Shown here piece by piece: positions 3,772 through 26,506 of a stretch of 64,000 nt of DNA; positions within the stretch are counted from its first letter, which is position 1; every line of letters starts with the position of its first letter. Origin of the DNA: Candidatus Latescibacterota bacterium (GTDB lineage: Bacteria > Latescibacterota > UBA2968 > UBA8231); the NCBI GenBank assembly GCA_964291625.2, contig OZ220089.1:352001-416000 (forward strand). The letters run 5' to 3'. The position numbers and the translations under genes were made by a program. Below the pieces are notes generated by a model. That model was not told the DNA's origin. It did no database searches and saw nothing but the letters and a program-made list of their open reading frames with translations.

Positions 3772-3805
3772 GGTCGTTGAAGCACCCCTCTTCGAGGAGG
3801 CCGGG

Positions 3806-8000: not shown

Positions 8001-8283
8001 CTTCCTCGGCGGACTTGAAGTGCGCATTCCCGGTCTGGTACAAGGCCACTTCCTGCAGCGGCGCCGAGATTTCGCCGACGGTCACCGCCACGTCCTTCAT
8101 CTGCAGGAAACGGCTCTGGCTCCGGATGATGCGCTGGTAGGCCTCGATCGCCTGGTCGTAGGCTCCCGAGGCGTAGAACCTCTGGGCGTCGGCGAAGGTC
8201 GCCTGCATCTCCGGAGCCGTGGGCACCGACCGGGTGACGGCGATCATCACCGTCAGGCCTACCAGGGTGATCAACGCGACCAT
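5032..8283 (-). CDS. Large tetratricopeptide-repeat protein (BamD/CpoB-like TPRs), N-terminally anchored
   Basis: 1083 aa with many repeats of the type ALFQIGEAHF...Y..A...Y..L...FP.S. Hydrophobic N-terminus. SD-like GAGGT upstream of ATG 8283. Confidence 0.9.
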   Translation of the reverse strand: MVALITLVGLTVMIAVTRSVPTAPEMQATFADAQRFYASGAYDQAIEAYQRIIRSQSRFLQMKDVAVTVGEISAPLQEVALYQTGNAHFKSAEEALASAARSRDPERRSRYQDRARSLFGEAADAFVRTEELSTVDALKALARSRAVACWYAIQDYERTIEGAALLIERYPSSAYVEQAMYDVGWAHYDREDYRNSITAFERLVERFPGGYRGSRALFQIGEAHFALENYREAVPFYQRLVDSQRIEEMSEREILQMKRQKIAGLVDETALDLAAKALIRVGECHEKTGQYAEAEEAFQLVASRFAEEQRLAEEAYLRQADMHYRRGDFAAVVAVYHQAIEATDDVVQKARMQLLLANRYFETEHYEEAVREYEVYRANYEAAAARAGLAVEGVALQIARAWFRVAERQPEEERLDYYRRAESELRATLAAYPGSPYDVELRFNLGLAIQLQDQPDKMGEALVFLGSVAEAPNAEGYRQSALFQIARTHHGLGDHAMAAKTYRTVIDELAEKPEQDVARFELGIVEREAGNQERALRELLAVGREAELFARSRLEAGQLLVRQGEHRQAVAVLQEGLEAKGRPEGQALHYLLASASMELGEQEGALTHFAAVIDQGDPDLGQRAAYSRGSLLFRMKRYSEALEELNREWTDPELSSAARRLLAAAYANLGDYGQAQAIYRQMADAAAGPLERAEHLLAEAEIANRQGRYADAFAACEEILGLDLKEGPLPEERQYHLREKAWFLQAESAVRTEDFARAFDRADAGLRAFPRGFFAADLLFLRGLAALQTDAAALAAASFGRMLADYPGHPNAGYARYYLGYAHFNKARFSRAIPFFAGVVDQYPDLDVAADALFRLAESRYNSGAYGEARQTYRQVIRRFPETGLAEEALYNIAWCLLNEAPAEPSAEHQAAVRQAMEEYLTRYPGGRHLPTARYTLAEMSYNAGDYDRAYELFQGLQADFPESEAARQAEGVLRDVREAVAFRDYSGAMEAFNRALAEDDHDLIRQAIGPLEAVWRQYSMTSSGLAAKMNVGVCYQQLGEWQKAVDAFGDVITQGERGNAQVTPRMMEFCERRRLTIERKHL

Positions 8284-8362
8284 GGTCCGTTACCTCTGGC
8301 TGCGGGCGGTTGCGGGACGCCGCCCTGGCGCGGTCCGTCCTGCCGCCATGGGAAGGAAGCTC

Positions 8363-11173
8363 TCATTCATCGAAGCCCAGGATGACCCGCAGGAAGGCCG
8401 AGGCGATGTCGAGGTCCTCCCTCTGCCGGGCGGGATCGCCGTACTGGCGCCGGGTCCACTTCACCCCCAGGTTGGTGGCGATGTTGTACCCGAAGTAGGG
8501 GGACCGGTTCGTCAGCTGCACCACCCGCACCACCTCCTCGTAGCTGTCGCGGCCGTCGGCCAGGTCCTCCTTGCGCAGGGGCAGGCCCGGCAGCCCCTGG
8601 GTGCCGAGCCACAGGTAGGTGCGCGGCGTGATGTGACAGGAGGCCTTGAGGATCGGTATCAGGGTCCACTCGTCAGCGAGGTCCACGGCCAGACTCTCCC
8701 GGGTCCTTCGCAGGACCAGTCCCTTGCCCTGGGCGATCAGCTGCCAGCGGTCCGACAGCTCCCTCACGTACTCGGCCCGGGCCACCATCGTCAGGCGGGT
8801 GATGGTGTCGGCAACCTGGTCGCTGCCGTCGGACAGGGTCGCCTCCTGCTGCTCGTTGACCGCATAGCGCAGGTTGCCGCCGAGTCGCAGGCCGGGGGCG
8901 GCGGTCAGGTCGGCCTCGACGTAGTGCTGCCGGTCCAGGCTGTCGCGATACTCCAGCTGGTCCGTCAGCCGGGTGGGGGCGTACGTGGGCCAGTGCTCGT
9001 GCCCGCCCAGGACCTCGCCATAGGTGATGTAGTTGTCGACGATGTCGTCATGGACCCGCTGCAGGCGGGTCTCGGCCCAGACCGAACCCCACCGGGGGTT
9101 GTGGCGGCGGAAGGTGACCACGCCGTAGGTGCTCTCGTTGCGGGCGCCGCTGACGATCCCCTCCGCCCGCAGACGGCCCGCGGTGAGGCGGACGCCGCCG
9201 GGCAGGTGCAGCACCCCGAAGGCGTGGTGCCCGCTCTGATCCAGCTCGTACGGGTAGTCCGAGTCCAGGTCGTCCTCGCGGTGGTCGGCGATCCCGTTGT
9301 TGTTGGCGTCCCGGCCATAGGCATACTCTTCCGGCTCCACGTCGTACAGCAGGAACGCCTCCAGGTAGTCGGGCACCTGGTTGCCGTTGCGGTTGGTGTC
9401 CGGAATCCGGTCGTTGTCCCGGTCGTTGCCCGGAAAGACCCCGTCCGGGTCGTAGGGGATCGTCGTGTAGTGGGGACTCGGCCGATGCCCGTGGCCGATG
9501 TCGGGATAGCGATCGTCGTCGTCGTTGTCCTGCACGAAGCCGCTGTCGTACTCCTCGGCGATCGAGAACAGCTCCCCCCCTGCCTCCACCCGGCCCCGGC
9601 GCCAGCGCCCGTTCACGTAGTACGCGCCCGCGTCCGTGCTGCTGCGCGCCCCGTTCCAGCGGCGGATGCCCCTCACCTCCCGATCCTCGCGGTACCCCGG
9701 CCGGCCGTCGGGAAACTCCCGGAACTCCACGTTGCGGGCGTACTCCCAGCGCACCTCGGCGTCGCCCCACTCCCAGGACCCGTTGAGCCCCCACAGGGCG
9801 CGGCCCGTCCACTCCCCCAGGTCCAGGCGCACCCACTCCAGGTTCGACATGTCCTGCACGTTGCCCCGGGACCGGAGGACGGCGGTCACCCCCGGCGTCT
9901 CCTTCCTCTCGAGGTAGCCGCTCGTGGAGACGAGGGTGTTGCCGCCCACGCGGTAGTGGAACTCGTACTCCTCCACCGCCGGCGCCGAGACGAACAGCGG
10001 CAGCACCTCGACCCGGTAGTCGTTGCCCACCAGCGCCTCCACCTGCACCTGCCGGACGAAGGGCTCCTGGCTCACGTCGAAGATGGCGATGATCTGCTCA
10101 TGGCCGTCGGCGCGATGGCCCGGAACGTCGGGCAGGGCCTCCACCCAGCGCAGCAGCTCCTCCAGGTTGACCTTGTCCGACACGTCCTCGCCCTGCAGGT
10201 GATCGCGCAGGTAGAGCAGGTCCGCGAAGCGCGTGCCCTGATCCAGGTAGACCGCCCGCCGGAACTGTCCGGAGAGCCGGTTCGTCGTGCCCACCGCCGT
10301 TGGATTCTGGCCGTTGATGCGGGCCAGGAAGGGCCGCAGGTCCGGCCGGTCCTCGCCGTTGATCTTCAGACGCACCTCCGATACCAGGGCGCCGGCCTGC
10401 AGGTCCTCCGGCGAATCGTCGGAGAACCGAACCAGGTAGCCCACGGGCAGCACCTGCTCGGCCTGCAGCCCGCCGCGCAGATCGAAGCTCTCCTGCTCGG
10501 CGTCGAAGATGTGGAAGTTCACCCCCGTGGCCCCCAGGGTCAGCGCTCCCAGCTCGACGTCGCCGTGGGCCCCCAGGAGCATCGCCGAGCTGCGGATCTC
10601 GGCGGCCGAGTCCCAGTGGTGCCAGGTGGGACCGCCGCCGTAGCGGCTGTCGGCGAAGGGCCCGGTGTAGCGCTGTCCGATGACGGCCACCCGGGTGTTG
10701 CCCACCTGGGTGTCCAGGCGGATGCCGTCGTATCCCGGCAGGGCCAGCGTCAACGGCGTGAAGAGGGTGCGGATCTCCTCCCCGTAGATCAGGCTCGCCG
10801 CCCACCGGGAGTGCGACTCCCGGGCCACCAGGTTGCGCTCGAAGCGACCGAAACGGGGGAGGGTGCGGAAGGACTTGGGCAGGGCCGACGTCGTCGTCGA
10901 CCGGGTCTCCCGCCACTCGTACACGTCGTAACCCTGAATCAGGAAGTTGCCCAGAGGACCGTAGTAGTTTCGCCGCGAGAACCGGGTGAACTCCGGCAGG
11001 GTGTAGTCCTCGAAGCCGTAGTTGAGGTAGGAGGGATCCGACCGGTAGAGGAAGGAGCGGCCCGAGACGTCCTGGGCGAAGCCGAGATGCGGGTCCTCGG
11101 CCCCCGCCCGACCCGGGTCCCCCCAGGCCGGCACGAAGACCAGCGTCCAGACCGCGAGCCTCGCCCGTCTCAT
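8363..11173 (-). CDS. Uncharacterised exported protein, paralogue A (putative outer-membrane protein with TSP3-like Asp-rich motifs)
   Basis: 936 aa, signal-like N-terminus, DNDDDDRYPD, GVFPGNDRDNDRIPD and DANNNGIADHREDD motifs, amphipathic beta-strand-like C-terminal region. ATGA overlap with the upstream gene. Confidence 0.8.
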   Translation of the reverse strand: MRRARLAVWTLVFVPAWGDPGRAGAEDPHLGFAQDVSGRSFLYRSDPSYLNYGFEDYTLPEFTRFSRRNYYGPLGNFLIQGYDVYEWRETRSTTTSALPKSFRTLPRFGRFERNLVARESHSRWAASLIYGEEIRTLFTPLTLALPGYDGIRLDTQVGNTRVAVIGQRYTGPFADSRYGGGPTWHHWDSAAEIRSSAMLLGAHGDVELGALTLGATGVNFHIFDAEQESFDLRGGLQAEQVLPVGYLVRFSDDSPEDLQAGALVSEVRLKINGEDRPDLRPFLARINGQNPTAVGTTNRLSGQFRRAVYLDQGTRFADLLYLRDHLQGEDVSDKVNLEELLRWVEALPDVPGHRADGHEQIIAIFDVSQEPFVRQVQVEALVGNDYRVEVLPLFVSAPAVEEYEFHYRVGGNTLVSTSGYLERKETPGVTAVLRSRGNVQDMSNLEWVRLDLGEWTGRALWGLNGSWEWGDAEVRWEYARNVEFREFPDGRPGYREDREVRGIRRWNGARSSTDAGAYYVNGRWRRGRVEAGGELFSIAEEYDSGFVQDNDDDDRYPDIGHGHRPSPHYTTIPYDPDGVFPGNDRDNDRIPDTNRNGNQVPDYLEAFLLYDVEPEEYAYGRDANNNGIADHREDDLDSDYPYELDQSGHHAFGVLHLPGGVRLTAGRLRAEGIVSGARNESTYGVVTFRRHNPRWGSVWAETRLQRVHDDIVDNYITYGEVLGGHEHWPTYAPTRLTDQLEYRDSLDRQHYVEADLTAAPGLRLGGNLRYAVNEQQEATLSDGSDQVADTITRLTMVARAEYVRELSDRWQLIAQGKGLVLRRTRESLAVDLADEWTLIPILKASCHITPRTYLWLGTQGLPGLPLRKEDLADGRDSYEEVVRVVQLTNRSPYFGYNIATNLGVKWTRRQYGDPARQREDLDIASAFLRVILGFDE

Positions 11174-13884
11174 CCCTGGAAGGGCTCCAGTCCCAGCAGC
11201 AGGCGGACGAAGAGCAGAGAGCGCTCGACATCGAGCTGCTTCCGGCTCCTGGTCTCGAATCGAAGGGTCTTGGCGAGGTATCCCGCGTTCAGGGTCAGGT
11301 AGTAGCCTTCGTACGTGGTGCGGTTGGTGATGGAGATGATGTAGTCCCTGCTGCCGTAGTCGACCTGGTGGTTGATCAGGTTCCTGTAGGTGCTGGACAG
11401 AAAGGGGAAACCCTGGGCGCCCGCGCTCAGGCTCGTCTGGGGTGACAGGGCGACGGTGGCCACCACCATGGGATAGAAGTAGCGCTCGGAGACGGGATGG
11501 ACATGGAAGTCACCGCCCTGCCGCCGGTAGGCCATGTACTTGGCCCTGGGGGTGACCGTCCACCGGTCCCTCTTCCAGGTGTAGCCGCTGCGCAGGACCC
11601 ACGCCCACTCCTGGATCGTGTCGGCGGGCTGGAAGGCGGAGGCCCGCTGGAGATTGACCGTGTGCTTGAGACGGCTGTTGATCTCCAGGCCCTTCACCCG
11701 GATGAAGGTGGCGTCGAGGTGAGCCGTGTTGACGAAGCTGTTCCTCATCAGCAGCGGGTCTTCGACCTGCGTCAGACCCTGGACGCTCGCCGTCGAGGTG
11801 GGATCGATCGGCAGCCCGTGGGGCGTGAAGAAACCGAACTGGGGCGAATCGTCGGCGATGTCGTCATGGACCCGCTTGAGGAAGTTGGAGAAGTCGATCG
11901 AGGCATGGGGAAAGAGGGTGCGCCGGTAGTTCAGGCGCACATAGTTGACGCGGTTCTCGCCCGGCCCCCAGATCTCGCGGACATGGTAGCGCCCCACGCT
12001 CAGGTCCAGGGCCTGCACCGGCTCGATGGCGCCGAACAGGTGATACCCCTTCCTGTCCGTCGGATAGGGGTAGTCGGGCCGGAAGTCGTCCTCGCGGTGA
12101 TCGATGACCCCGTTGTTGTTCATGTCGTCGCCGTAGTCGTACTCCAGGGGATCGACATTGTAGAGCAGGAAGGGCTCGTTGTAGTCGGGCTCGGCGTTGC
12201 CGTTCTCGTTCACGTCGGTGCGGCCGTCCTGGTCGCGGTCGAGGCCCGGGAAGACGCCGTCCCCATCGCCGAAGCTCTTGTTGAGGAAGTGGAAGTCGGG
12301 CCACAGGTCCTTGTCGTCGTTGTCGTCCACCGTGTCGAGAATGACGGTGTCGTTGTACCTGTCCTGCCAGTTGGGAGCGACCTCCCCGAGGAAGGGACTG
12401 CCGAGGTCATCGGAGTAGGTCCAGTATTCCCGGCTCTGGACGGAGAGGGATGTGCCGTACAGGGGATCCATCCGGAAGAGCTCTCCCGCCAGGTGGAACC
12501 AACCGAGCTGCTTCCTGGCGTGGACGAAGAAGGCATCCGCCGTCTCCCGGTGCCAGCGGCTCCGTCCGATCGTGCTCGGATACTGGAGGTAGTTGAAGCT
12601 GCGGGCGTACTCGCCGCGCACCTCGAGTCCCTCCCGCTCCAGCTCCAGGCGCAGGCTGCCCGTGGTACGGCCGCTCTGTCGGCCGTACTCGAAGGAGACG
12701 CGGCGCAGATTGCCCAGGTCCCCCACGTTCCCCACCTGGGACGCCACGTCGCGGAAGAAGGTGGCCCGCACGACCCGGAGATCCGGGTTGCTGGTGGTGG
12801 CCGCCGCGGCGGGCAGGAAGACCTCGGACAGACTGATGCGGTAGTCGTTGGCCACCATGGCGTTGAATCGAAGGGACTCGACCTCGTCGCGCATCTCCTG
12901 GGGGATCTTGAACCAGTAGATGAGGTACTCGGTGCCGTTGGCCTCCAGGAAGCCCTGGGCGCCGGGGTCCTCAAGGGGCAGGTCCCCCTTGAGGAACTCG
13001 ATGTAGGGGGGAATCGTGAAGCCCGGCCGGAAGGCCCTGTCCCCGTTCGGAAAGTGTGGATTCACCACGTCGGCGTCGTGGCGCGTCACGCTGACTTCCA
13101 CGAGCTCGTTGAGAGGGCCCTCGACGCGAACATCGTAAACCCGCGCGCCACGTCCATCGTCCTCCGAGCCATCGCTGATCTTGACGGCCAGATAGGCGGG
13201 CGGGTTCTTCCGCCGCGAGGGCAGCACCCCCTTGAGGCTGTTGTCGCCAAAGCCGACGAAGCTGTCGGTGCGCAGGAGGTTGGCGTAGGAGAGGCTCACC
13301 CTCAGGGCTCCCGCCCTGTGCGCGAGGTGACCGCCCAGCAGGTAGGTGGGCTCGTTCGTCAACTGGTGGAAGTCGTTGTCGTCGTCGTTGTAGATCGGCC
13401 AGTCGAAGCGCGACGACACGGCGGTGGCCTGCGTGCCTCCGAGATCCACGTCCCAGCGGATCCCGTTCAGCTGGGCCAAGTCCAGGGTCAGGGGAGTGAA
13501 CTTGGTCCGTATCCGGTTCCCCACCATCAGCCGGCTGGCCCAGCTCTTGTGGGTATCGTGGGCGACGACGAGGTTGCCCACGAGGGCCCGGAACTGGGGG
13601 TCCTTGTTCAACAGGCTCCCGGGATCCCGCTCCATGGGCCGCGTCTCCTGGCTGCGCCAGACTTCGGTGCCGTCGAGGAGGAAGTTGCCCAGCTCGTCGA
13701 AGACGGGAGCCCGGATCTGCGACCACAGAGAGGCCGTGTACTCCCTGTACCCGGAGCGCGCGTAGTATTGCTCGTAGTCGCGGACCGGCTCGTAGAGGAG
13801 CTGGCTCTCCCCGGGTGCCGAGGAGAGTACCAGCCAGGCCCCCAGGAGAGCAGCAGCGAGACCAGGACGTTTGTGCACCGTCAT
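11170..13884 (-). CDS. Uncharacterised exported protein, paralogue B (same family)
   Basis: Start reassigned to ATG 13884 (MTVHKRPGLAAALLGAWLVLSSAPGESQ, a signal peptide), 2 nt after the upstream stop. Shares FTPLTL, GIRWD, LLGGH, DDNDDKDLWPD, GVFPGLDRDQDG and NNNGVIDHREDD motifs. Confidence 0.8.
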   Translation of the reverse strand: MTVHKRPGLAAALLGAWLVLSSAPGESQLLYEPVRDYEQYYARSGYREYTASLWSQIRAPVFDELGNFLLDGTEVWRSQETRPMERDPGSLLNKDPQFRALVGNLVVAHDTHKSWASRLMVGNRIRTKFTPLTLDLAQLNGIRWDVDLGGTQATAVSSRFDWPIYNDDDNDFHQLTNEPTYLLGGHLAHRAGALRVSLSYANLLRTDSFVGFGDNSLKGVLPSRRKNPPAYLAVKISDGSEDDGRGARVYDVRVEGPLNELVEVSVTRHDADVVNPHFPNGDRAFRPGFTIPPYIEFLKGDLPLEDPGAQGFLEANGTEYLIYWFKIPQEMRDEVESLRFNAMVANDYRISLSEVFLPAAAATTSNPDLRVVRATFFRDVASQVGNVGDLGNLRRVSFEYGRQSGRTTGSLRLELEREGLEVRGEYARSFNYLQYPSTIGRSRWHRETADAFFVHARKQLGWFHLAGELFRMDPLYGTSLSVQSREYWTYSDDLGSPFLGEVAPNWQDRYNDTVILDTVDDNDDKDLWPDFHFLNKSFGDGDGVFPGLDRDQDGRTDVNENGNAEPDYNEPFLLYNVDPLEYDYGDDMNNNGVIDHREDDFRPDYPYPTDRKGYHLFGAIEPVQALDLSVGRYHVREIWGPGENRVNYVRLNYRRTLFPHASIDFSNFLKRVHDDIADDSPQFGFFTPHGLPIDPTSTASVQGLTQVEDPLLMRNSFVNTAHLDATFIRVKGLEINSRLKHTVNLQRASAFQPADTIQEWAWVLRSGYTWKRDRWTVTPRAKYMAYRRQGGDFHVHPVSERYFYPMVVATVALSPQTSLSAGAQGFPFLSSTYRNLINHQVDYGSRDYIISITNRTTYEGYYLTLNAGYLAKTLRFETRSRKQLDVERSLLFVRLLLGLEPFQG

Positions 13885-13886
13885 GG

Positions 13887-16739
13887 CTACAGGATCCGAG
13901 CCTGGATGAAGAACTCGCTGAGCCGCTGGACCCGCCGGCTCGGCAGGTTGACGAACTCGGAGCGGCTGGAACGGAATCCGAGGTTCGTGCTCACGTCGTA
14001 GCCGGTGTAGTTGCTCAGGTTCTGGATGAGGACGATCCAGTGCCGGGCGTCGAAATCCCTTGACGGCGCCTTGGCCTCGCGGAACCGGTGGAGCCACGGC
14101 AGTCCCTGCACGCCCGCGCGAAGAGTCGTGTCCTCACTCAGCGCGTAGTCGGCCCGCAGAATGGGGATGATCTCGTGGCTCTCCAGGGGCATGAGGAGAT
14201 CACCCGGCGCCGTCCTCCGCCGCAGGGTGAACTTCACCATCGGACTCAGAGTCAGCCTGCCTCTGACATGGGCGTAATCGGCCTTGCTCACCAGGCTCCA
14301 GTCGAGGATGTCGTCCCCCAGTCCCGGCCGGCTGTCCCTGCGGTTGTTCCACTCGACCTTGGCTGCCTGGATGAGGTTCAGTCCCTCGACGCCGGTGTAG
14401 TGGCCCTTGGCGAAGAGGGTGCTCACGAGGCTGTTTTCCATCAGCATGAGATCGGGCCGCGGACGGATGGCGACATTGACCTGGGTCTGGGGCTCGATCA
14501 CCGCCTCGAAGAGTGGGTTGGGTATGTCGTCGCGTACCCGCTTGAGACGCCAGCGGGCGATGAATCGCCCCGCTTCGCTCCCTTCCGCCGTGTAACCGAG
14601 CTCTCCATAGGTCACCTCGTTTCGGCCTGCCGCCGCTCGCTGCCGGACCCGGTACCGCCCGAGGCGCAGCCCTGCTCTCTCGAAGGGTTGCACCGAGGCA
14701 AAGCCGTGGTAGCCCCGACTGTCCAGGTCATAGGGGAGGTCCGCCTTGTTGTCGTTCTCGCGCACGTCGACCACGCCGTTGTTGTTGAAGTCCTCCCCGT
14801 ACACGAAGTCGTCGGGTTCGACGTAGTACATGAGGAAGGGCTCGAGATAGTCCGGGTACTGGTTGCGGTTGACGTTGGTGTCCACCACCCCGTCCTCGTC
14901 CTGATCCAGGCCCGGGAAGACCCCGTGCCCGCCGCCCAGGCCGTACTCCCCGGCCGCATCGGGCCGGATGGCGTCCACGTCGATCCCCGAGGCGTTGGCA
15001 TAGGCTATGTAGACGGGGTCCAGAGGGTCCCAGTGTTCCACCTTGTCCGGCCACTCGTCGCCGTCGTCGTTGTCCTCCACCAGGTCCCACCCCAGGACGG
15101 CCTGCTGGCCCTCGGACCACACGGGCAACGAGACCTGGTAGGTCGGAGGGACGTGGAAGATCTCCAACCCCACGTCCCCCAGGGACCACTCCTGCAGGAG
15201 ACGCACGTACCACGCGTTCGTGGCGCGGTTCTCCCGTCGCCCCAGGAAGGGGAACCGGGCGTGCTGGACGTTGCTGATGTACTCCGCCTCCAGGTTGGCC
15301 CCGCCGATCTTCGCCTCCACCGTGCTGCCGAACTGGACCAGACCCGTGGGGAAGCCGTAGTCGACGGTGACCCAGCCCATGTTGGACCCGTCCTGCACGT
15401 TCCCCGGCGCCCGCTTGACGTTGTGCCAGTCGCTCCAGAGCGACGTGCCGCCGCCGAAGAAGCCATAGGCGGCGCCCACGTCCAGGCTGTAGTCCCCCGA
15501 CACCTGCACCCGGAACCGCAGGCTCTGCGGATCACCGGGCACCTCGTAGCGCAGTACCAGCAGGTCCGTGCCGCCCACCTGGAGGGGGAAGGGCTCCTCC
15601 ATGGGGATGCCCTCCCTGGCGAAGAGTCCCGAACGCTCGACGAAGATCCGGTCGGCGTTGAAGATCCGCGGGGCCCACGCTCCGTCCCGGCGGATGTGGG
15701 GAACCTCGCTCACCTCCACGACCTGGGGGATCAGCTTCACCTCGGGATCCACGTCCAGCCGCTGCTGACCGGCGTACAGCTCCACGGCGTACACATCGAC
15801 ACCGTGCTCATCCTCCGGCGAGTCGTCGCTGATGACCAGGTAGAAGGAGGAGGTGCCGGTCAGACGGGAAGGGACATCCCCGCGGAGGCTCGTGTTCCGC
15901 TGGGCCGCATCCTGCAGGTGTAGGTTCACGTAGGATGCGCCGAAGGTCAGGATGTCGCCGAACTGGCTGCTCCAGTGGCCGCCGAAGAGGTAGTGGGTGA
16001 AGTGACGGTCACCCGTCAGCGGCCGGGGCACGCGGGACGAGATCAGGGAGAAGCTGTTGCGGTGGGAGGACGCGTCCCAGCGGAGCCCCTCCAGACGGGA
16101 GAGGTTCAGGGTCAGCGGAGTGAACCGGCCGTCGAGGAGGTTGCCGATCATGAACCGGGTGGACCAGCCCCCGAAGGCGTCACGGAGGATCACCATGTTG
16201 CGGAACCGGCCCAGGCCCCAACCCGGCACCCTGCTGCTGCGCGCGGGGTCCAGGGTGCCGTACTCCTCGATCCGCAGGATCTCCACGCCGTCGACCAGGT
16301 AGGAACCGAAGGGATCGTAGGTGGGACGCTCGGGGCGGAATCCGTAGTCCCGGTAGCTGAGGAAGCTGTAGTTCTCGTAGCGCTCGTCCCAGAGCGGACG
16401 CAGCTCACGGTTGAGGAAGTCCTGCTGGCCCGACCAGTAGTCCTCGGGGGAACGCTGCGCCAGGCAGGGCTCGGCCAGACTGCCCGCCAGCACCGACAGG
16501 GCAAGACCTGCCACGGCCGCGCGCACTCTGCGGCCAGCGCATCCGGCGGCGGGCCACCGGCCGGCGCGGGGGCCGCCGGCGATCAGGTGGCCCGCATGGA
16601 GCTGGAGCCGATGGAAAGGACCGTCCCGGAGCCGGGACGCGGCCCGGTGCCCAACCTGGGTGCCAATCTCAAGGACAGGCGCAACCCCTCCGGGCCCATC
16701 ACCCGTGCCGTTCGTCGTCTCGGAGGCCTCGGTTGGCAA
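13887..16739 (-). CDS. Uncharacterised exported protein, paralogue C (same family); true start may be GTG 16526
   Basis: Same motif set (FTPLTL, GLRWD, LFGGH, SDDSPED, GNVQDGSN, DNDDGDEWPD, GVFPGLDQDEDG, NNNGVVDVREND). The signal peptide VRAAVAGLALSVLAGSLAEPCLAQ begins at 16526. Confidence 0.75.
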   Translation of the reverse strand: MPTEASETTNGTGDGPGGVAPVLEIGTQVGHRAASRLRDGPFHRLQLHAGHLIAGGPRAGRWPAAGCAGRRVRAAVAGLALSVLAGSLAEPCLAQRSPEDYWSGQQDFLNRELRPLWDERYENYSFLSYRDYGFRPERPTYDPFGSYLVDGVEILRIEEYGTLDPARSSRVPGWGLGRFRNMVILRDAFGGWSTRFMIGNLLDGRFTPLTLNLSRLEGLRWDASSHRNSFSLISSRVPRPLTGDRHFTHYLFGGHWSSQFGDILTFGASYVNLHLQDAAQRNTSLRGDVPSRLTGTSSFYLVISDDSPEDEHGVDVYAVELYAGQQRLDVDPEVKLIPQVVEVSEVPHIRRDGAWAPRIFNADRIFVERSGLFAREGIPMEEPFPLQVGGTDLLVLRYEVPGDPQSLRFRVQVSGDYSLDVGAAYGFFGGGTSLWSDWHNVKRAPGNVQDGSNMGWVTVDYGFPTGLVQFGSTVEAKIGGANLEAEYISNVQHARFPFLGRRENRATNAWYVRLLQEWSLGDVGLEIFHVPPTYQVSLPVWSEGQQAVLGWDLVEDNDDGDEWPDKVEHWDPLDPVYIAYANASGIDVDAIRPDAAGEYGLGGGHGVFPGLDQDEDGVVDTNVNRNQYPDYLEPFLMYYVEPDDFVYGEDFNNNGVVDVRENDNKADLPYDLDSRGYHGFASVQPFERAGLRLGRYRVRQRAAAGRNEVTYGELGYTAEGSEAGRFIARWRLKRVRDDIPNPLFEAVIEPQTQVNVAIRPRPDLMLMENSLVSTLFAKGHYTGVEGLNLIQAAKVEWNNRRDSRPGLGDDILDWSLVSKADYAHVRGRLTLSPMVKFTLRRRTAPGDLLMPLESHEIIPILRADYALSEDTTLRAGVQGLPWLHRFREAKAPSRDFDARHWIVLIQNLSNYTGYDVSTNLGFRSSRSEFVNLPSRRVQRLSEFFIQARIL

Positions 16740-16746
16740 GTTGCTC

Positions 16747-18813
16747 TCAGTAAACCACCCCTACGACGCCAGTGGCGGTTTCGGTCCCGGCATCGAGCTC
16801 CACCTGGACGCGGTAGATGTAGTTGCCCGGCGGCACGAGCCGGCCCTCGTCGTCCCTGCCGTCCCAGTATCCGGGGACGATGCCTCGGGCCCCGCTGACG
16901 AGGCGCAGGTAGACGCCGGCCGCCAGGGGGGCCGGCTTCAGATCGCGCACCAGAGTGCCCCGGAGGTCGAAGATGCGCACTCCCAGGTCGCGGGGCGTGT
17001 CGACCTTGCTGAGAATCAACTCGATGACGGTGTCGTCGTTGATGTCGTCGCCGTTGGGTGTGAAGACGGAGGGATTCGCGCGGACCCTCGACAGGGCATT
17101 CTCGGTGGAGGTCGTGGGGACCACCGCCCAGGAGAAGAGCTCGCCCGTGCTCTCGTCCATACCGACGCTCTCGGCCACGTTGACGGGGTTGTCCGAACCC
17201 GGGCTGAAGAGGAACATGCGGAACTCGTGGCTGTTCGCATGGGAGCGGGCCCGAAAGGGTATCTGCAGCTGGTCGATGTCGCGAAGCGGCTCGGTAAAGG
17301 CGAGTTCCAGCGCATCCTGGGTGGAGGTCCAGTCCGCCAGAATCCCCTGGAGCCGACCGTCGTCGACCAGCCGGGCCTCGCTGGGGACGGCGATGAGCAG
17401 CCGCTCGATCCCCGCGTCTTCGGGGGCAAAGACCAGGTGCAGGGTGCACACGAAGAGGGTGTCCGCGCCCATTGAGACCCGGTTGGGCGCAACCCTGGAA
17501 TGGGCGCCCGAAACGGCGAGTTCCTCGATGGTGTAGTCCAGCTCCAGGCTGTGCAGCGCCGGCGTGCGCCGCTGATCCCTGGACTCCAGGGAAACCCGGT
17601 ACTGGAGCCAGGCCCCCGGCTCCGAAGCGGGGAACCAGACGTCTCCACTCGACAAGGGACTGCTCCAACCGCGCCCGGGATCCTCGAAGTCCTCCGTCGA
17701 GTTCCCCGTCCGGAACTGGACGAAGAGATCGGTGCGCACGGGGACCTCCGCATCCCAGCGGACCCGGCCGAAGTTCTTGGCCTGGCCGGGCGCGCCAAGG
17801 GAGAGGGGCTCGGAGAGATAGGTGCCCTCATCGGTGTACCCGTCTCCGTAGACCTCCACCTCGGCGACCTTGGGCGGGCTCACCGAGTTGATGTCGACGA
17901 TCACGATACGCACATACCGGGTCCAGACCGGTGTGAAACGCACCTCCGTCCAGTCGAACTTCTCGATATCGTGTCTGACGCCCACTTCGGTCCAGCGGAC
18001 CTGGTCGTCGCTGACCTGTACCGAGTAGCCCCTGAGCGAATTCTCCTCCAACTGGCCAGGATTGCTCCCTCTTGTGACGACGCGGACGCTGCTGACGTTG
18101 CGCCTCACCTGCAGGTCGACGCTGGCCGAGTAGTTGAGGGCCGAGGTCGGGGGGTCCCAGGAGGTGTTCAGCTTCCCGTCCACGACCTCCTTGCGGTTGC
18201 TCGGTTTGTCCAGGGCCAGATTCCGGCCGCGAATCTGACTCAGAACCAGGCTTCCCTGCCGGGTGCCCACATCGATCCCCGCCTCGAACCCGGAGACGAC
18301 CTCGATCTCCGGGTCGAGCAGGTCCTGGATCCGGGCGCGCTCGACCGATCCCTGCTGTACGGTCTGCCACGCGGCATCATCCTCGGGATCTGCCGTCGTC
18401 CACTCCAGGCCCTGCTGCTCCGCGGCGGTCCAGTACCATCCCTGCACCACCTGGTTCGTGGTCGTCTCGATGCGGTACTCGTCGGTGACCACCGCGGCGA
18501 TCAGGCCGTTGCCGCCGCCGCCGCCGCGGTTGACGACCTTCACGGCGATGTCATTCCCCGACTTGCCGTCCTGGACCTCGATGGCATAGGCCTGCATCCG
18601 GGTACCGAGGGAATCCCCGCCGAGGAGCACGCCGTTGAAGTAGACCTCGTAGCTGTCCACGGCGGCTACGTGGAGCTGGCCCTCGAGAGGGGCCTCGGAA
18701 ACGAAGTTGGTACGGAAGTAGGAGGTGCTGCGCCACGAACTCTGCTCCCACGTCTGCGCGGTCGCCGCAGCCGTGCAGCAGAGCACGATCAGGGAGGTGA
18801 AGCGGATAGACAT
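16747..18813 (-). CDS. Secreted protein with F5/8 type C (discoidin/CBM32-like) domain and C-terminal FlgD-Ig / gliding-motility-associated CTD
   Basis: Signal peptide MSIRFTSLIVLCCTAAATAQ from ATG 18813. NLALDKP...VVDGKLNTSW...YSVQVSDDQVRW...TRYVRIVI...VAEVEVYG is discoidin-like. FTPNGDDINDD...IFDLRGTLVR...WDGRDDEGRLVPPGNYIY is FlgD-Ig/CHU_C-like. Confidence 0.85.
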   Translation of the reverse strand: MSIRFTSLIVLCCTAAATAQTWEQSSWRSTSYFRTNFVSEAPLEGQLHVAAVDSYEVYFNGVLLGGDSLGTRMQAYAIEVQDGKSGNDIAVKVVNRGGGGGNGLIAAVVTDEYRIETTTNQVVQGWYWTAAEQQGLEWTTADPEDDAAWQTVQQGSVERARIQDLLDPEIEVVSGFEAGIDVGTRQGSLVLSQIRGRNLALDKPSNRKEVVDGKLNTSWDPPTSALNYSASVDLQVRRNVSSVRVVTRGSNPGQLEENSLRGYSVQVSDDQVRWTEVGVRHDIEKFDWTEVRFTPVWTRYVRIVIVDINSVSPPKVAEVEVYGDGYTDEGTYLSEPLSLGAPGQAKNFGRVRWDAEVPVRTDLFVQFRTGNSTEDFEDPGRGWSSPLSSGDVWFPASEPGAWLQYRVSLESRDQRRTPALHSLELDYTIEELAVSGAHSRVAPNRVSMGADTLFVCTLHLVFAPEDAGIERLLIAVPSEARLVDDGRLQGILADWTSTQDALELAFTEPLRDIDQLQIPFRARSHANSHEFRMFLFSPGSDNPVNVAESVGMDESTGELFSWAVVPTTSTENALSRVRANPSVFTPNGDDINDDTVIELILSKVDTPRDLGVRIFDLRGTLVRDLKPAPLAAGVYLRLVSGARGIVPGYWDGRDDEGRLVPPGNYIYRVQVELDAGTETATGVVGVVY

Positions 18814-18840
18814 CAGGAGGTTTCCCCTGCCGATAGAAAC

Positions 18841-18874
18841 AAATGGGTGGCCGGTTTGCACCGGCCACCCATTT
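18841..18874 (-). terminator. 15-bp perfect hairpin with GCAA tetraloop between the first and second genes of the operon (attenuator or stabiliser)
   Basis: Minus strand AAATGGGTGGCCGGT-GCAA-ACCGGCCACCCATTT followed by GTTTCT. Confidence 0.7.
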
Positions 18875-18916
18875 CCCGAGTCAGGCTGCTCTCAACAAGA
18901 GACGCCCGCAGGCCGC

Positions 18917-20758
18917 TTACTTGAGCAGAGTTACGCGCTTGCTCTCGGCAAAGCTCCCGGCGACCATCCGGAATACATAGACCCCGCTGCCGACCTTGGC
19001 GCCGCGAGAGTCCGTGCCGTCCCAGGTGACGTGGTAGGAACCGGGATCCAGCATCTGGTCGACCAGTCTGGCCACCTCCTGGCCGGCCACGTTGTGCACG
19101 GTCAGGGTCACCGACTCGTGCAGTTCGGGAACGGCGATGCGGACCGTGGTCTCGGGGTTGAAGGGGTTCGGGAAGGCGTCACCCAGTGCGAAGGCTCCGG
19201 GCTTTGCCCCCTCGACTTCGGAGATCCCGCTTTCCAACTCACCAACCCGTGCCCGGGCGATGTCCATTGGGAAGTGCGCCAGATAAGGCCCGGCCCCCAC
19301 GCCGATGTACAGCCCGTCGGCCTCGTTGTCGTTGTCCATCAACATGGCGATGCCGCCGAGTGCGCCCGGGGGCATGTGGATTCCCACGTTGAGCTTGAAC
19401 AGACCGAACCCGTCGGGTCCCAGGACCGTGGCCCATTCAGGCGCTTCCCAGCCGCCGACGAGGCTGATTCCCCAGCGGGTGGCCAATATGCTGATCGGAA
19501 TGTTCGAAGGGATCCCCAGGGCCTCCCTCTCCTCACTGGTGTAGTAGTCGAGGTAGAAGTCGCCGTTCTGGTTCTTCCAGACCAGATTGAGGTCGTGATC
19601 GGTCTTCGTCGGGCCCGCTCCGGGGCGCCCGAGATAACTGGTCCCGTAGTAGCCCGTGTCGTCGACATCGAACCCGGCCACGGACTTGAAGTTTCTGGGG
19701 GCGCCTTCGTCGTTGTAGACCTGCGGGAAGTAGTCCAGGAAGGACAGGACGTCCACCAGCTCTCCGGTGGCGCGGTCGAACCTCTGCACCGCGGGACCTG
19801 GCGAACCGTAGGGCTCCACGTGGTCGGCGACGGTGGCGTAGAGCAGGCCGTCGTCGGCAACCCAGGGATGGTGTCGGGCGTTGGTCACCATGGTGGTGAT
19901 GCCGCGAACCTCCATTGCGATGTACCCGCCGTCGGCGTTCTCCCAGCTCTCGTCCAGCAACGCGGTGCCCGCCTCGCGATCGATGATCGCTCGGTACAGG
20001 CCGCCCGGCGGGTTCTGGAAGCGGATGACGTACGCCACTCCGTCCTCGGCCGGATCCATCTGCAGGTAGCCGACGTCCTTCCAGTCGTTCCCGCTCTCGG
20101 CCGGAACCGCGTTGACCCACGGGATGGCGAAGGTCTCGAAGGCTTCGGGATTGGCGAGCAGGTCGGTGCCCATTTCGCTCACCCTGATGTTCCACACGCC
20201 ATCGATCTGCTGGGGGAACCAGATCTCCGGGGGGCTCTTCGTGTCGTCGACCACCGAGTTCTGCCAGGGGGCCATGGTCCCGCCCGCGTAGGTGGGCTTG
20301 GAGTCGACGTCGATGGCGAACAGGTAGGTCCTGTAGGCGCCGGAAGCCACCGCCGCTCCCGTGTAATCCGTGCCGTCCCAGGTGATGGTGTTCGAGCCCG
20401 CGTCGAACCGGTCTCCGGCACTGATGTAGACCAGGGTATCCAAGCCGGCGGCGCGGATCAGGCTCTGCTCGATGCCTCCCACCCCGAAAGGCTCTCCGCC
20501 GTACTGGGGATCGGCATCCAGGGTGTACACGGCGAGCCAGACCATGGCCGAGGGAACGCCTTCGATGGTGAAAGGGATCTCGAGCGGGGAACCGTCAAAA
20601 CTGTGGTCCACGTCCTCGGTCGAGAGTTTCAGCACCGTCGGCGCACCACCCTTCCAGTGGGCGTCGAAGCTCTGCCAGTCCGGGTTCGACTGGCCGAAAT
20701 CGTTTGCCGCGACCGTCCCGACCAGCCCGGAACACAGCAGAAGGATCGCCTTTTTCAT
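18917..20758 (-). CDS. Secreted protein with N- and C-terminal FlgD-Ig domains and T9SS type A-like C-terminal sorting domain
   Basis: ATG 20758 preceded by AAGGAG. Signal MKKAILLLCSGLVGTVAA. ITWDGTDYTGAAVASGAY near the N-terminus. AFPNPFNPETT...VHNVAGQEVARLV...WDGTDSRGAKVGSGVYVFRM...KRVTLLK at the C-terminus. Confidence 0.85.
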   Translation of the reverse strand: MKKAILLLCSGLVGTVAANDFGQSNPDWQSFDAHWKGGAPTVLKLSTEDVDHSFDGSPLEIPFTIEGVPSAMVWLAVYTLDADPQYGGEPFGVGGIEQSLIRAAGLDTLVYISAGDRFDAGSNTITWDGTDYTGAAVASGAYRTYLFAIDVDSKPTYAGGTMAPWQNSVVDDTKSPPEIWFPQQIDGVWNIRVSEMGTDLLANPEAFETFAIPWVNAVPAESGNDWKDVGYLQMDPAEDGVAYVIRFQNPPGGLYRAIIDREAGTALLDESWENADGGYIAMEVRGITTMVTNARHHPWVADDGLLYATVADHVEPYGSPGPAVQRFDRATGELVDVLSFLDYFPQVYNDEGAPRNFKSVAGFDVDDTGYYGTSYLGRPGAGPTKTDHDLNLVWKNQNGDFYLDYYTSEEREALGIPSNIPISILATRWGISLVGGWEAPEWATVLGPDGFGLFKLNVGIHMPPGALGGIAMLMDNDNEADGLYIGVGAGPYLAHFPMDIARARVGELESGISEVEGAKPGAFALGDAFPNPFNPETTVRIAVPELHESVTLTVHNVAGQEVARLVDQMLDPGSYHVTWDGTDSRGAKVGSGVYVFRMVAGSFAESKRVTLLK

Positions 20759-20929
20759 GAGTTGCTCCTTTTCTCCGCCCTCCATGACGAGCCCGGTTCA
20801 ATCCGGCTTTGAGGGGTGAGATTTGGTTCGTGACCTGCTATCTCCATGCCGGGTTTCGGCAGGGCCACTAAAGAGGCCACTATTGATTCTGCCTGCGGCT
20901 CAATCCTTTGGCTCCTTCTCGTTCAATAA

Positions 20930-20960
20930 CACCATTACCACCCTTTTTCGTGTATGTCAA
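20930..20960 (-). promoter_or_regulatory. Putative sigma70 promoter for the envelope operon
   Basis: Perfect TTGACA (20960-20955) followed by TGGTAATGGT, an imperfect -10, in a locally AT-rich intergenic region. Confidence 0.45.
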
Positions 20961-20961
20961 G

Positions 20962-20999
20962 AGAAAAAACAGGCCCGCGTCCCACCTGGGGCGCGGGCC
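20962..20999 (-). terminator. Rho-independent terminator after the small lipoprotein gene
   Basis: Minus strand GGCCCGCGCCCC-AGGT-GGGACGCGGGCC (one mismatch) followed by TGTTTTTTCT. Confidence 0.7.
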
Positions 21000-21021
21000 A
21001 CGGTTGACGCTTATGTTTCGC

Positions 21022-21525
21022 TTATGATCCGCTTTCCGGATCAGAATACCCCTCGGGCCCTGATCCCTCTGCCTCGCCCGCCTTGATCCTCACGGGGTCA
21101 GACCCGACCGAGATGAACCTGGTCCGCGGGTTGAGGGTGAGTTTGTCGTAGTTCCCGAAGGGCCGCCAGCGCTTGGCCCCCGGGGTGGTCATGGTCTGGG
21201 GCTCGGCGTCCGGCGCCTCGACACCGATCATCCGCAGAGCCTCCTCCTCATCGAAAGGATCCATCCCTTCGAATCTGTAGCTGACATAGCTCGCCTCCCC
21301 CGCCTTAATTACCACGAAGACCCGTACACCCGTACCGAGCACATCCTGCCACAGCAGGTGCCCGAACCTCTTTCCCGAGTCCTGGACGTTCTGCATGGGT
21401 TCTCCCCAGCGCTCGATCAGTTGTGCCTCGCTCGTCCCGAGCACCTCGTGCACATCCAGCGGCGGCCGCTCCCGGGAGCAGGACACGCCGAGAACCAGGA
21501 CTGTGACGGCCAGTGCGATTCGCAT
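21022..21525 (-). CDS. Hypothetical lipoprotein
   Basis: 167 aa with a clear lipoprotein signal MRIALAVTVLVLGVSC, followed by a terminator. Confidence 0.75.
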   Translation of the reverse strand: MRIALAVTVLVLGVSCSRERPPLDVHEVLGTSEAQLIERWGEPMQNVQDSGKRFGHLLWQDVLGTGVRVFVVIKAGEASYVSYRFEGMDPFDEEEALRMIGVEAPDAEPQTMTTPGAKRWRPFGNYDKLTLNPRTRFISVGSDPVRIKAGEAEGSGPEGYSDPESGS

Positions 21526-21631
21526 CCGGATCCGATCCCTGTCTTCAACTCGCTCTGAAGCCCGGCACCTCCCGGCATCGGGCCGAGAGCCGCAAAATAA
21601 GCCGGACTCGACGGATTGTCGATCGAGTCAG

Positions 21632-24436
21632 ATGCGGTCCCGGATCTGGATGCTGGTCCTGGCGCTGACGAGCGGCGCCGGTGCGACGGCAGAGGCGGGC
21701 GAGCCCCGTCTGGGGCTCGCCCAGGACGTCTCGGGCCGGTCCTTCCTCTACCAATCGGATCCTGCCTACCAGAACTACGGGTTCGAGGACTACACACTTC
21801 CGGAGTTCACGAGCTTCGCACGGCGCAACTACTACGGCCCCCTGGGCAACTTCCTGATCGAGGGCTACGACGTGTACGAGTGGCGGGAGACGCGGGCGTC
21901 CTCGACCACGGCCTGGCACAAGTCGTTGCGCACCATCCCCCGCTGGGGGCGCTTCGAGCGCAACCTGGTAGCCCGGGAGTCTCACTCCCGGTGGGCGGCG
22001 AGCCTGATCTACGGGGAGGAGATCCGCACCCTCTTCACGCCGTTGACGCTGGCCCTGCCGGGATACGACGGCATCCGCCTGGACACCCAGGTGGGCAACA
22101 CCCGGGTGGCCGTCATCGGACAGCGCTACACCGGCCACTTCGCCGCCGGCCGCTACGGCGATGGTCCGGTCTGGACCGACTGGGACTTCACCGAGCACAG
22201 GCGGAGTTCGCTCATGCTCCTGGGGGCTCACGGCGACGTCGAGCTGGGAGCGCTGACCCTGGGAGCCACGGGGGTGAACTTCCACATCTTCGACGCCGAG
22301 CAGGAGAGCTTCGATCTGCGCGGCGGGCTGCAGGCCGAGCAGGTGCTGCCGGTGGCCTACCTGGTGCGGTTCTCCGATGATTCGCCGGAGGACCTGCAGG
22401 CCGGCGCCCTGGTATCGGAGGTCCGTCTGAAGATCAACGGCGAGGACCGGCCGGACCTGCGGCCCTTCCTGGCCCGGATCGACGGCCGGAATCCAACGGC
22501 GGTGGGCACCACCAACCGGCTCACGGGTCAGTTCCGGCGGGCGGTCTACCTCGACCGGGACACGCGCTTCGCGGACCTGCTCTACCTGCGCGATCACCTG
22601 CGGGGCGAAGACGTGTCGGACAAGGTCAACCTGGAGGAGCTGCTGCGCTGGGTGCAGGTCCTGCCCGACGTTCCGGGCCATCGCGCCGACGGCCACGACC
22701 AGATCATCGCGATGTTCGACGTGAGCCAGGAGCCCTTCGTCCGCCAGGTGCAGGTGGAGGCGCTGGTGGGCAACGACTACCGGGTCGAGGTGCTGCCGCT
22801 GTTCGTCTCGGCGCCGGCGGTGGAGGAGTACGAGTTCCACTACCGTGTCGGCGGCAACACCCTGGTTCCCGGGCAGGGCTACTTCGTGGAAAGGGAGACG
22901 CCGGGGGTGACCGCCGCCCGCCGGTCCCGGGGCAACGTGCAGGACATGTCGAACCTGGAGTGGGTGCGCCTGGACCTGGGGGAGTGGACCGGCCGCGCCC
23001 TGTGGGGGCTCAACGGGTCCTGGGAGTGGGGCGACGCCGAGGTGCGCTGGGAGTACGCCCGCAGCGTGGAGTTTCGGGAGTTCCCCGACGGCCGGCCGGG
23101 GTATCGCGAGGACCGGGAGGTGAGGGGCATTCGCCGCTGGAACGGGGCGCGCAGCAGCACGGACGCGGGCGCGTACTACGTGAACGGGCGCTGGCGCCGG
23201 GGCCGGGTGGAGGCAGGGGGGGAGCTGTTCTCGATCGCCGAGGAGTACGACAGCGGCTTCGTGCAGGACAACGACGACGACGACCGCTATCCCGACATCG
23301 GCCCCGGACATCGCCCCATGAGCGCTGACACGGGCACGCCCTTCGACCCGGACGGGGTGTTCCCGGGCAACGACCGGGACAACGACCGGATTCCGGACAC
23401 CAACCGCAACGGCAACCGGGTACCCGACTACCTGGAGGCGTTCCTGCTGTACGACGTGGAGCCGGAAGAGTATGCCTATGGCCGGGACGCCAACAACAAC
23501 GGGATCGCCGACCACCGCGAGGACGACCTGGATTCGGACTACCCCTACGAGGTGGACCAGCGCGGCCACCACGTCTTCGGGACGCTGCATCTGCCGGGCG
23601 GCTTCGGTCTCACGTCGGGCCGTCTGCAGGCGGAGGGGATCGTCAGCGGCGGCCGCAACGAGAGCACCTACGGCGTGGTCACCTTCCGCCGCCACAACCC
23701 CCGGTGGGGCTCGGTCTGGGCCGAGACCCGCCTCCGGCGGCTCCATGACGACATCGTCGACAACTACGTCGTCTTCGACGAGACATGGGGCCGCTATCCC
23801 AACCGGGAGCGGACTTACGCCCCCACCAGGCTCCTGGATCTGCTCGAGTACCGGGACAGCCTGGACCGGCAGCACTACGTCGAGGCCGATCTGACCGCCT
23901 CCCCCGGTCTCCGTCTCAGCGGCAACCTGCGCCATGCGGTCAACGAGCAGCAGGAGGCGACCCTGGCCGACGGCAGCGACCAGGCCGCCGACACCATCAC
24001 CCGCCTGACGATGGTGGCCCGGGCCGAGTACGTGCTGGAGCTGTCGGACCGCTGGCGGGTGATCGCCCAGGCCAAAGGGTTGCGGCTGCGCCGGACCCGG
24101 CAGAGCCTGGCCGTGGACCTGGCAGACGAGTGGACCTTCGTACCGATCCTCAAGGCCTCCTGTCACATCACACCGCGCACCCACCTGTGGCTCGGCACCC
24201 AGGGACTGCCGGGACTGCCCTTGCGAAAGGAGGACCTGGCCGACGGCCGCGACAGCTACGAGGAGGTGGTGCGGGTGGTGCAGCTGACGAACTGGGCGCC
24301 CTACTTCGGGTACAACATCGCCACCAACCTGGGCGTCAAGTGGAGCCGGCGCCAGTACGGAGATCCCGCGCGGGACAGGGACAACGTCGACATCACCTCC
24401 GCCTTCATGCGCGTCATCCTGGGCTTCGACGAGTAG
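21632..24436 (+). CDS. Uncharacterised exported protein, paralogue A' (near-identical inverted copy of 8363-11173)
   Basis: Start reassigned to ATG 21632 (MRSRIWMLVLALTSGAGATAEA signal). The protein aligns end to end with paralogue A, with long nucleotide-identical stretches. Confidence 0.85.
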   Translation: MRSRIWMLVLALTSGAGATAEAGEPRLGLAQDVSGRSFLYQSDPAYQNYGFEDYTLPEFTSFARRNYYGPLGNFLIEGYDVYEWRETRASSTTAWHKSLRTIPRWGRFERNLVARESHSRWAASLIYGEEIRTLFTPLTLALPGYDGIRLDTQVGNTRVAVIGQRYTGHFAAGRYGDGPVWTDWDFTEHRRSSLMLLGAHGDVELGALTLGATGVNFHIFDAEQESFDLRGGLQAEQVLPVAYLVRFSDDSPEDLQAGALVSEVRLKINGEDRPDLRPFLARIDGRNPTAVGTTNRLTGQFRRAVYLDRDTRFADLLYLRDHLRGEDVSDKVNLEELLRWVQVLPDVPGHRADGHDQIIAMFDVSQEPFVRQVQVEALVGNDYRVEVLPLFVSAPAVEEYEFHYRVGGNTLVPGQGYFVERETPGVTAARRSRGNVQDMSNLEWVRLDLGEWTGRALWGLNGSWEWGDAEVRWEYARSVEFREFPDGRPGYREDREVRGIRRWNGARSSTDAGAYYVNGRWRRGRVEAGGELFSIAEEYDSGFVQDNDDDDRYPDIGPGHRPMSADTGTPFDPDGVFPGNDRDNDRIPDTNRNGNRVPDYLEAFLLYDVEPEEYAYGRDANNNGIADHREDDLDSDYPYEVDQRGHHVFGTLHLPGGFGLTSGRLQAEGIVSGGRNESTYGVVTFRRHNPRWGSVWAETRLRRLHDDIVDNYVVFDETWGRYPNRERTYAPTRLLDLLEYRDSLDRQHYVEADLTASPGLRLSGNLRHAVNEQQEATLADGSDQAADTITRLTMVARAEYVLELSDRWRVIAQAKGLRLRRTRQSLAVDLADEWTFVPILKASCHITPRTHLWLGTQGLPGLPLRKEDLADGRDSYEEVVRVVQLTNWAPYFGYNIATNLGVKWSRRQYGDPARDRDNVDITSAFMRVILGFDE
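21713..24433. repeat. ~2.7-kb inverted repeat, partner copy at ~8366-11090
   Basis: For example, ~21996-22055 is the exact reverse complement of 10741-10800. Similarity extends across the whole mature-protein coding region, interrupted by divergent patches. Confidence 0.9.
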
Positions 24437-24438
24437 GC

Positions 24439-26448: not shown

Positions 26449-26506
26449 GGGATGGCTCTCCTTGTGCGACGGCGACGGGGATGCGGCCCCGGCCAGGCTG
26501 GCACCC

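Follow-up and report, generated by a model that had tools for sequence, protein, structure and literature searches.

Signatures of interlocus gene conversion around five protected loops in an inverted pair of predicted outer-membrane barrel genes from Candidatus Latescibacterota

How can two genes of one genome be identical over long stretches and differ sharply in a handful of short patches? The question is raised by paralogues A and A', an inverted gene pair in a 64,000-nucleotide (nt) stretch of DNA, here called the window, from Candidatus Latescibacterota bacterium (GenBank assembly GCA_964291625.2, contig OZ220089.1, positions 352,001 to 416,000). A preliminary description of this DNA had called the patches hypervariable and had suggested surface variation through gene conversion or through inversion of the ~10.4-kb segment between the copies. 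We consider it probable that A and A' are old duplicates in which the framework of a predicted beta-barrel has been homogenized by conversion, with five loops kept as two forms.

The window has a G+C content of ~70%, and the real genes were chosen among many overlapping open frames by codon-position G+C. Aligned as proteins, A and A' are identical at 808 of 937 columns (86%); their DNA is identical at 2510 of 2799 aligned bases (89.7%). From residue 40 onward, the 253 differences at 2694 sites are strongly clumped. Their variance per 90-nt window is 42.8, versus 7.4 in permutations (maximum, 16.3), and the two longest identical tracts measure 152 nt each, a length reached in 0 of 5000 random placements (mean longest tract, 61 nt; maximum, 144 nt). 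Synonymous (n = 96) and replacement (n = 106) codon differences lie a mean of 4.5 codons apart where 9.0 are expected (0/2000 permutations). The mosaic of long identical stretches and short divergent patches is thus more than chance clumping, and the five patch positions given in the preliminary description agree with ours to within a few bases.

Within the five patches, the synonymous (dS) and nonsynonymous (dN) divergences between A and A' are 0.48 and 0.44, compared with 0.17 and 0.033 in the rest of the gene, so that patch dS is 2.8 times that of the remainder. Along the window's own pair, dS was not uniform but ranged from 0.06 to 0.88. Because the patches have diverged at both synonymous and replacement sites, they appear to be old and the framework young. 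Homology between the copies stops exactly at the stop codon and at the 5' end fades within the signal-peptide codons or just upstream of the start codon; the signal peptides, earlier described as unrelated, have diverged but are still alignable in DNA. Among A' orthologues, dN/dS is 0.19 to 0.23, and by this measure and its intact reading frame A' is a complete, evidently constrained gene, not a silent cassette. A search of the window's own genome for further copies found none close beyond A and A', the next paralogue being 56% identical.

The history of the pair was followed in 30 related genomes, 10 of them in the genus, the window's own genome (G000) included. A is present at full length in 4 of these 10 (G000, G002, G006, and G007) and as a fragment in a fifth (G004). 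All four also carry A', inverted and 10.46 to 10.56 kb from A, with the same neighbors and with paralogue B directly upstream of A; the orientation of the segment is identical in these four species-level genomes. Since the pair occupies the same two loci in four species, the duplication predates the split of at least four species, and independent duplications are excluded because both loci are orthologous in position and neighbors.

Despite this age, the copies resemble each other most within a genome. Within-genome A-A' DNA identities (0.906, 0.888, 0.913, and 0.938) equalled or exceeded all between-genome A-A' values (0.873 to 0.896; one tie, at 0.888), and the value for G007 exceeded even every A-A orthologue value. 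Sliding windows resolved lineage-specific tracts of 97 to 100% identity, with patches 3 to 5 at 73 to 89% in every genome, and scaffold tracts are identical within genomes where orthologues differ by ~8 to 10%. The longest identical tract measures 386 nt in G002 (codons 103 to 231, across patch 2), 236 nt in G006, 207 nt in G007, and 152 nt in G000. Informative sites, summed over six nonindependent genome pairs, divided accordingly: in the scaffold, 381 were concerted, 169 orthologous, and 25 of the third pattern, whereas in the patches 27 were concerted, 371 orthologous, and 4 of the third pattern. As far as sequence comparison can tell, these site patterns are those of interlocus gene conversion with protected islands. 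The recombination between copies proposed earlier is thereby upheld across four genomes with the same pair in the same synteny.

Patches 3, 4, and 5 kept to their own locus in all four genomes. Within one form, these three patches gave ratios of nonsynonymous to synonymous polymorphism (pN/pS) of 0.11 (A) and 0.20 (A'), next to scaffold values of 0.20 and 0.24; between the forms, pN/pS was 0.87. Because the patches are as constrained as the scaffold within each form, the term hypervariable fails. Judged by these ratios, the patches are two conserved forms, each apparently under purifying selection, and a cell would therefore carry two barrel versions that differ in predicted exposed loops. In the wider family, the patches are the most variable segments (entropy, 2.58 versus 1.80), and 0 of 5000 random segment sets reached the patch value.

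Patches have at times been carried across. The firmest case is patch 2 in G002, where A carries the A' form inside the 386-nt identical tract; in the same genome, patch 1 of A is partly converted, and in G007 it is A' that carries the A form of patch 1. We also typed 52 distinct close relatives, obtained from two protein searches and their clusters. The A form was found throughout in 13 and the A' form throughout in 10 (besides the window's own A'), while 11 had at least one swapped patch among patches 2 to 5, including 3 on contigs of >80 kb. Over the five patches, one of these three, P0073, reads abaaa, and its partner P0138, paired with it by equal longest contig, reads bbbbb (all A' form), which implies a nonreciprocal transfer of patch 2. 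The chimeric, patch-shuffled alleles that had been predicted thus occur both in genomes (G002 and G007) and among typed relatives. The fragment in G004 (L012, G004:C353:1-2569), which lies on a 2.6-kb contig and has an in-frame TAG, shows patch 2 in the A form and patches 1, 3, 4, and 5 in the A' form; it could be a genuine mosaic or the product of a chimeric assembly. A single-switch chimera, as a crossover (hence an inversion) would leave, was found in 0 of the 52 related proteins.

A, A', and their neighboring relatives B and C matched no Pfam or NCBIfam family, and a protein atlas look-up of A returned unnamed clusters only. The AlphaFold model of A, built on a 66-sequence alignment, has a mean predicted local distance difference test score (pLDDT) of 82 and a predicted template modeling score (pTM) of 0.80. 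It comprises ~23 long antiparallel strands, an inserted alpha/beta domain (residues 225 to 445), and an acidic D/N-rich insert (residues 539 to 645). Structural matches (Foldseek and VIA-align) were outer-membrane barrels only, and none stood out: the Foldseek hits 6r2q_B (E, 8e-8) and 8ae1_A (E, 3e-7) had TM-scores of <=0.25 on the query, and VIA gave Z scores of 10 to 12 versus porins, TonB-dependent transporters, ushers, MtrB, and SlpA. From the model, and with the signal peptide of A judged by eye, A and A' are predicted to be large outer-membrane beta-barrels. They share this fold class with MtrB, Deinococcus SlpA, and other large barrels, but TM-scores are low, there is no shared sequence family, and function is not transferable. 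Pfam SlpA_C did not match A, A', B, or C at its gathering threshold of 35 bits; the distant relatives P0054 and P0060 gave weak, subthreshold scores of 23.1 and 17.8 bits.

The model segments with a pLDDT of <50 (residues 172 to 189, 414 to 424, and 560 to 573), together with block 721 to 730, coincide with patches 2 to 5. Read back from the C-terminal strand, turns of 2 to 4 residues alternate with loops of 3 to 220 residues, and patches 2 to 5 lie on the long-loop side. In such barrels this side usually faces outward, and the loops of patches 2 to 5 probably do so as well. As a separate observation, the acidic insert (window 9200 to 9560 in A; also in B, C, and A') is the most conserved part of the family (entropy, ~1.0 to 1.1), and its sequence recalls calcium-binding repeats.

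Several observations weigh against our interpretation or limit it. Matches of outgroups (50 to 57% identity) to the A and A' forms are similar in number (48/36, 60/39, 8/23, 39/32, and 62/49), so neither form can be called ancestral. The genome pairs behind the site counts are not independent of one another. Eight of the 11 relatives with swapped patches lie on contigs of <=11 kb, and because short-read assemblers can switch copies at identical tracts, swaps of patches 3 to 5 are less secure than those of patches 1 and 2; from their sequences we regard them as likely but not securely real. A ends in ...ILGFDE, with F fourth from the end and no terminal aromatic residue. Outer-membrane barrels usually end in an aromatic residue, a rule that has exceptions, so that a barrel is not excluded. 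Finally, the side assigned to the loops was read from the order of strands and the length of turns in the model instead of from coordinates. Of the earlier expectation that the patches form exposed loops on the same face, the coincidence with poorly modeled loops and the common side of patches 2 to 5 stood, while patch 1 was placed on neither side.

The best-supported route to this pair would begin long ago, when the third barrel gene (A) of a larger gene cassette was duplicated in inverted orientation to give A' at a distance of ~10.5 kb. Noncrossover events of general homologous recombination between these copies would then repeatedly overwrite stretches of either gene in tracts of up to a few hundred bases; recombination of the RecA type would presumably be required. 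The framework would evolve in concert in each genome, and presumably has to fit the same partners. Selection would keep the two loop sets apart, with five short loops or loop tips resisting conversion, and now and then a conversion tract would carry a loop across and leave a mosaic allele. With its two loop forms, the cassette may have two alternative specificities, whether the target is a ligand, a partner, a phage, or a host. A hypothetical inversion would spare every gene but would break up the cassette, and four paralogous copies of the cassette keep the same order of genes; this may be why only noncrossover products are seen. A more far-reaching version, which we regard as unlikely, takes the pair to be a loop-shuffling system. 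Conversion tracts would move any of the five exposed loops between the operon-borne and free-standing subunits of an envelope machine, the variation would be kept by frequency-dependent phage or host pressure, and the identity of the framework would be maintained partly to keep the shuffling going. If true, a sponge-associated bacterium would have up to 32 loop combinations per locus.

In a rival reading, the variation would be programmed: A' would serve as a donor cassette for frequent conversion, or a crossover would flip the 10.4-kb segment and switch the promoter of the tetratricopeptide repeat (TPR) and DUF4159 genes. All five patches are indeed swapped in some relative or other, the gene order would survive an inversion, and the organism is detected in sponge metagenomes, where surface variation could pay. 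Public runs covering 15000 to 24900 mostly carry sponge metagenome labels (24 runs listed, from 14 studies), and relatives at ~95 to 97% identity occur in runs of several studies; close relatives carry the depositor's label "Gemmatimonadaceae bacterium," and no relative with flanks turned up when JGI metagenome contigs were scanned. We nevertheless judge programmed variation to be quite improbable. A silent-donor role for A', as in cassette-type antigenic variation, was rejected in view of its completeness, its signal peptide, and its low dN/dS, and the genome offers only these two close copies. The inversion is contradicted by the single orientation in 4/4 genomes and by the lack of single-switch chimeras among the typed relatives. 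Among the 35 long open frames scanned in the window, none matched a recombinase, integrase, invertase, or reverse-transcriptase family (Pfam), the scan extending neither to small frames nor to other parts of the genome; this agrees with the earlier remark that no recombinase is encoded here. A diversity-generating retroelement was likewise rejected, given the lack of a reverse-transcriptase family in these 35 frames and the presence of the base adenine in either copy at only 40 of 102 patch differences, unlike the spectrum of such elements. Exchange shows up when species are compared, not inside a single sample. Contigs from four public runs over 7000 to 26000 do not span either copy and stop at identical tracts (in run X19, at 8495 and 24304); being short and broken inside repeats, they carry no information on orientation or minority alleles. 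An "opposite strands" joint of 12139 to 23427 in run X1, with 32 letters on its shorter side, links the acidic motif of B to A' and was read as a repeat artifact.

Other origins of the mosaic can be weighed against the same data. The dN/dS between forms in the patches (near 0.9, and 4.2 for patch 3 alone, on very few sites) might suggest that the gene was duplicated recently and that five loops then came under positive selection, gene conversion playing no part. This is highly improbable for a pair found at the same two loci in four species, and hence old, whose scaffold tracts are identical within genomes where orthologues differ, whose patches exceed the rest in dS, and whose scaffold sites are predominantly concerted. 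The mosaics might also stem from exchange of alleles between strains, by homologous recombination after DNA uptake, and not between loci, as orthologue identity varies along the gene and several related strains share sponge samples. Exchange between strains cannot, however, account for the identity of A with A' inside one genome over 150 to 386 nt where orthologues differ, and only 29 of the 977 informative sites follow the third pattern, which leaves this origin very unlikely. In favor of an assembly artifact behind the duplication or mosaic, such as a collapsed repeat or a chimera of strains, identical tracts are indeed places where short-read contigs break, and most alleles with swapped patches 3 to 5 lie on short contigs. 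Yet four species representatives, including the one-contig G007 and the two-contig G000, have both loci, with unique sequence flanking each; at least 10 A/A' protein pairs were matched by equal longest contig; and contigs of run X19, which may be the window's source run, join the end of each copy to its own unique flank. The artifact reading, to which we assign almost no weight overall, is contradicted for the pair itself and applies at most to individual swapped alleles on short contigs.

The interpretation of A and A' as converted duplicates with protected loops places them near several known systems, of which babA/babB of Helicobacter pylori appears to be the closest. According to excerpts of one study (PMC3960876), the H. 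pylori pairs babA/babB, homA/homB, and sabA/sabB undergo intragenomic gene conversion that is most likely RecA dependent. In the same excerpts, outer-membrane paralogues of H. pylori have one segment that is concerted within a strain and another that is divergent, and chimeric alleles occur (PMC3960876). Like babA/babB as described there, A and A' would be outer-membrane paralogues at separate loci that exchange segments and are partly concerted and partly divergent. In contrast to the one 3' concerted segment reported in that source for babA/babB, concerted evolution in A/A' covers the whole barrel framework, with five short protected islands within it. A and A' are, moreover, inverted neighbors 10.5 kb apart, belong to an unrelated, uncharacterized protein family and lineage, and show exchange only between species, not during infection or culture. 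Recurrent conversion across many species also keeps tufA/tufB and other concertedly evolving prokaryotic duplicates similar; however, the tufA/tufB copies are kept functionally uniform, whereas A and A' keep two distinct loop sets against the homogenizing flow. Treponema pallidum tprK, Borrelia vlsE, and Neisseria pilE change in the course of a single infection, each drawing on many donor cassettes that are silent and lack promoters. A and A' resemble these in having discrete variable regions in a conserved surface scaffold that are changed by segmental conversion, but A has a single complete and constrained partner gene and two forms per patch.

The genomic setting of the pair is summarized in Table 1. 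The minus-strand operon in which A stands fifth encodes, in order, a 622-amino-acid (aa) protein, a 704-aa protein, C, B, A, a TPR protein, a DUF4159 protein, and a TonB-like AgmX/PglI protein. A' points away from the operon start and is predicted to be transcribed as its own unit. The small open frame between A' and the operon start has no family match, and its counterpart heads a paralogous cassette (39.6% identity at C1:26744-27238). A terminator-like hairpin was seen by eye near 20971 to 21000, after this frame, and a terminator scan of 20600 to 21800 returned none; a promoter scan of the same interval returned one weak promoter-like site on the minus strand, which was not used as evidence.

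Table 1. Coordinates in the window of the gene pair, its patches, and the neighboring genes
Feature	Position (strand)	Position in A' (strand)	Residues of A	Description
Paralogue A	8363-11173 (-)			936 aa; signal peptide; predicted large outer-membrane beta-barrel; third of the barrel genes C, B, A
Paralogue A'	21632-24436 (+)			934 aa; full length; own signal peptide; inverted relative to A; stands alone
Patch 1	10850-10900 (-)	21896-21946 (+)	92-108	pLDDT 62-75
Patch 2	10595-10660 (-)	22136-22201 (+)	172-193	25-residue loop between two long strands; pLDDT <50 at 172-189
Patch 3	9902-9928 (-)	22868-22894 (+)	416-424	Loop in the domain inserted at 225-445; pLDDT <50 at 414-424
Patch 4	9452-9493 (-)	23303-23344 (+)	561-574	Loop starting the conserved acidic D/N-rich insert; pLDDT <50 at 560-573
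Patch 5	8987-9028 (-)	23768-23812 (+)	716-729	One residue longer in A'; tip of hairpin 715-736; block 721-730 at pLDDT 57
First two operon genes	16747-20785 (-)			622 aa, FlgD_ig / type IX secretion C-terminal domain; 704 aa, F5/8 type C and CHU_C domains
Paralogue C	13887-16739 (-)			950 aa; same barrel family; ~35% identical to A
Paralogue B	11170-14097 (-)			975 aa; same barrel family; ~35% identical to A
TPR protein	5032-8283 (-)			1083 aa; YbgF/CpoB-like modules; downstream of A
DUF4159 protein	3806-5245 (-)			Downstream of A
TonB-like AgmX/PglI C-terminal domain protein	2521-3900 (-)			Downstream of A
Small open frame	21022-21525 (-)			167 aa; putative lipoprotein by eye (lipobox-like start); between the operon start and A'

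With the small lipoprotein gene included, these genes form a nine-gene cassette (window 2521 to 21525) that occurs four to five times in G000, the other copies lying at C1:8187-27238 (39 to 57% identity), C1:4438452-4457595, C2:42061-65518, and, in part, C2:2-4183. Its parts are a small lipoprotein, two secreted proteins with type IX-type C-terminal domains, three barrels of ~950 aa, and the TPR, DUF4159, and TonB-like AgmX/PglI-tail proteins; by its predicted products, it looks like an uncharacterized envelope-spanning machine. A full-text literature search on the function of DUF4159 gave only the Pfam database article. Across the genome, 48 matched stretches correspond to about 25 open frames of the barrel family, and an extra inverted barrel copy is found only in the window's cassette. 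The C-type barrel of the third cassette (L006, at C1:4450715-4453297 of G000) has one in-frame TGA within the match, which could mark a pseudogene, a sequencing error, or read-through. Where the F5/8 type C gene borders on paralogue C, relatives in runs X2 and X3 have 20 nt inserted after position 16742. On the far side of A', repeated modules at 24439 to 28501, 30254 to 32197, and 37504 to 41972 contain DUF4838 proteins (three copies) and DUF6785/DUF6784 membrane proteins (two copies), beside which lie an FG-GAP repeat protein and a weak glycoside-hydrolase-like match; judging from these families, this stretch may be a glycan-use region.

Taken together, A and A' reveal no new mechanism: the pattern is familiar in bacterial surface proteins, and it is the family that is unstudied. 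The pair offers a clean natural example of opposed forces, in which conversion would homogenize a framework and selection would separate two loop sets, with the boundary between homogenized and protected parts readable almost codon by codon across four species. Within a heavily expanded barrel family, the patches mark the parts that probably meet the outside world, and in this uncultured lineage their loops would be the obvious places for ligand, phage, or host contacts.

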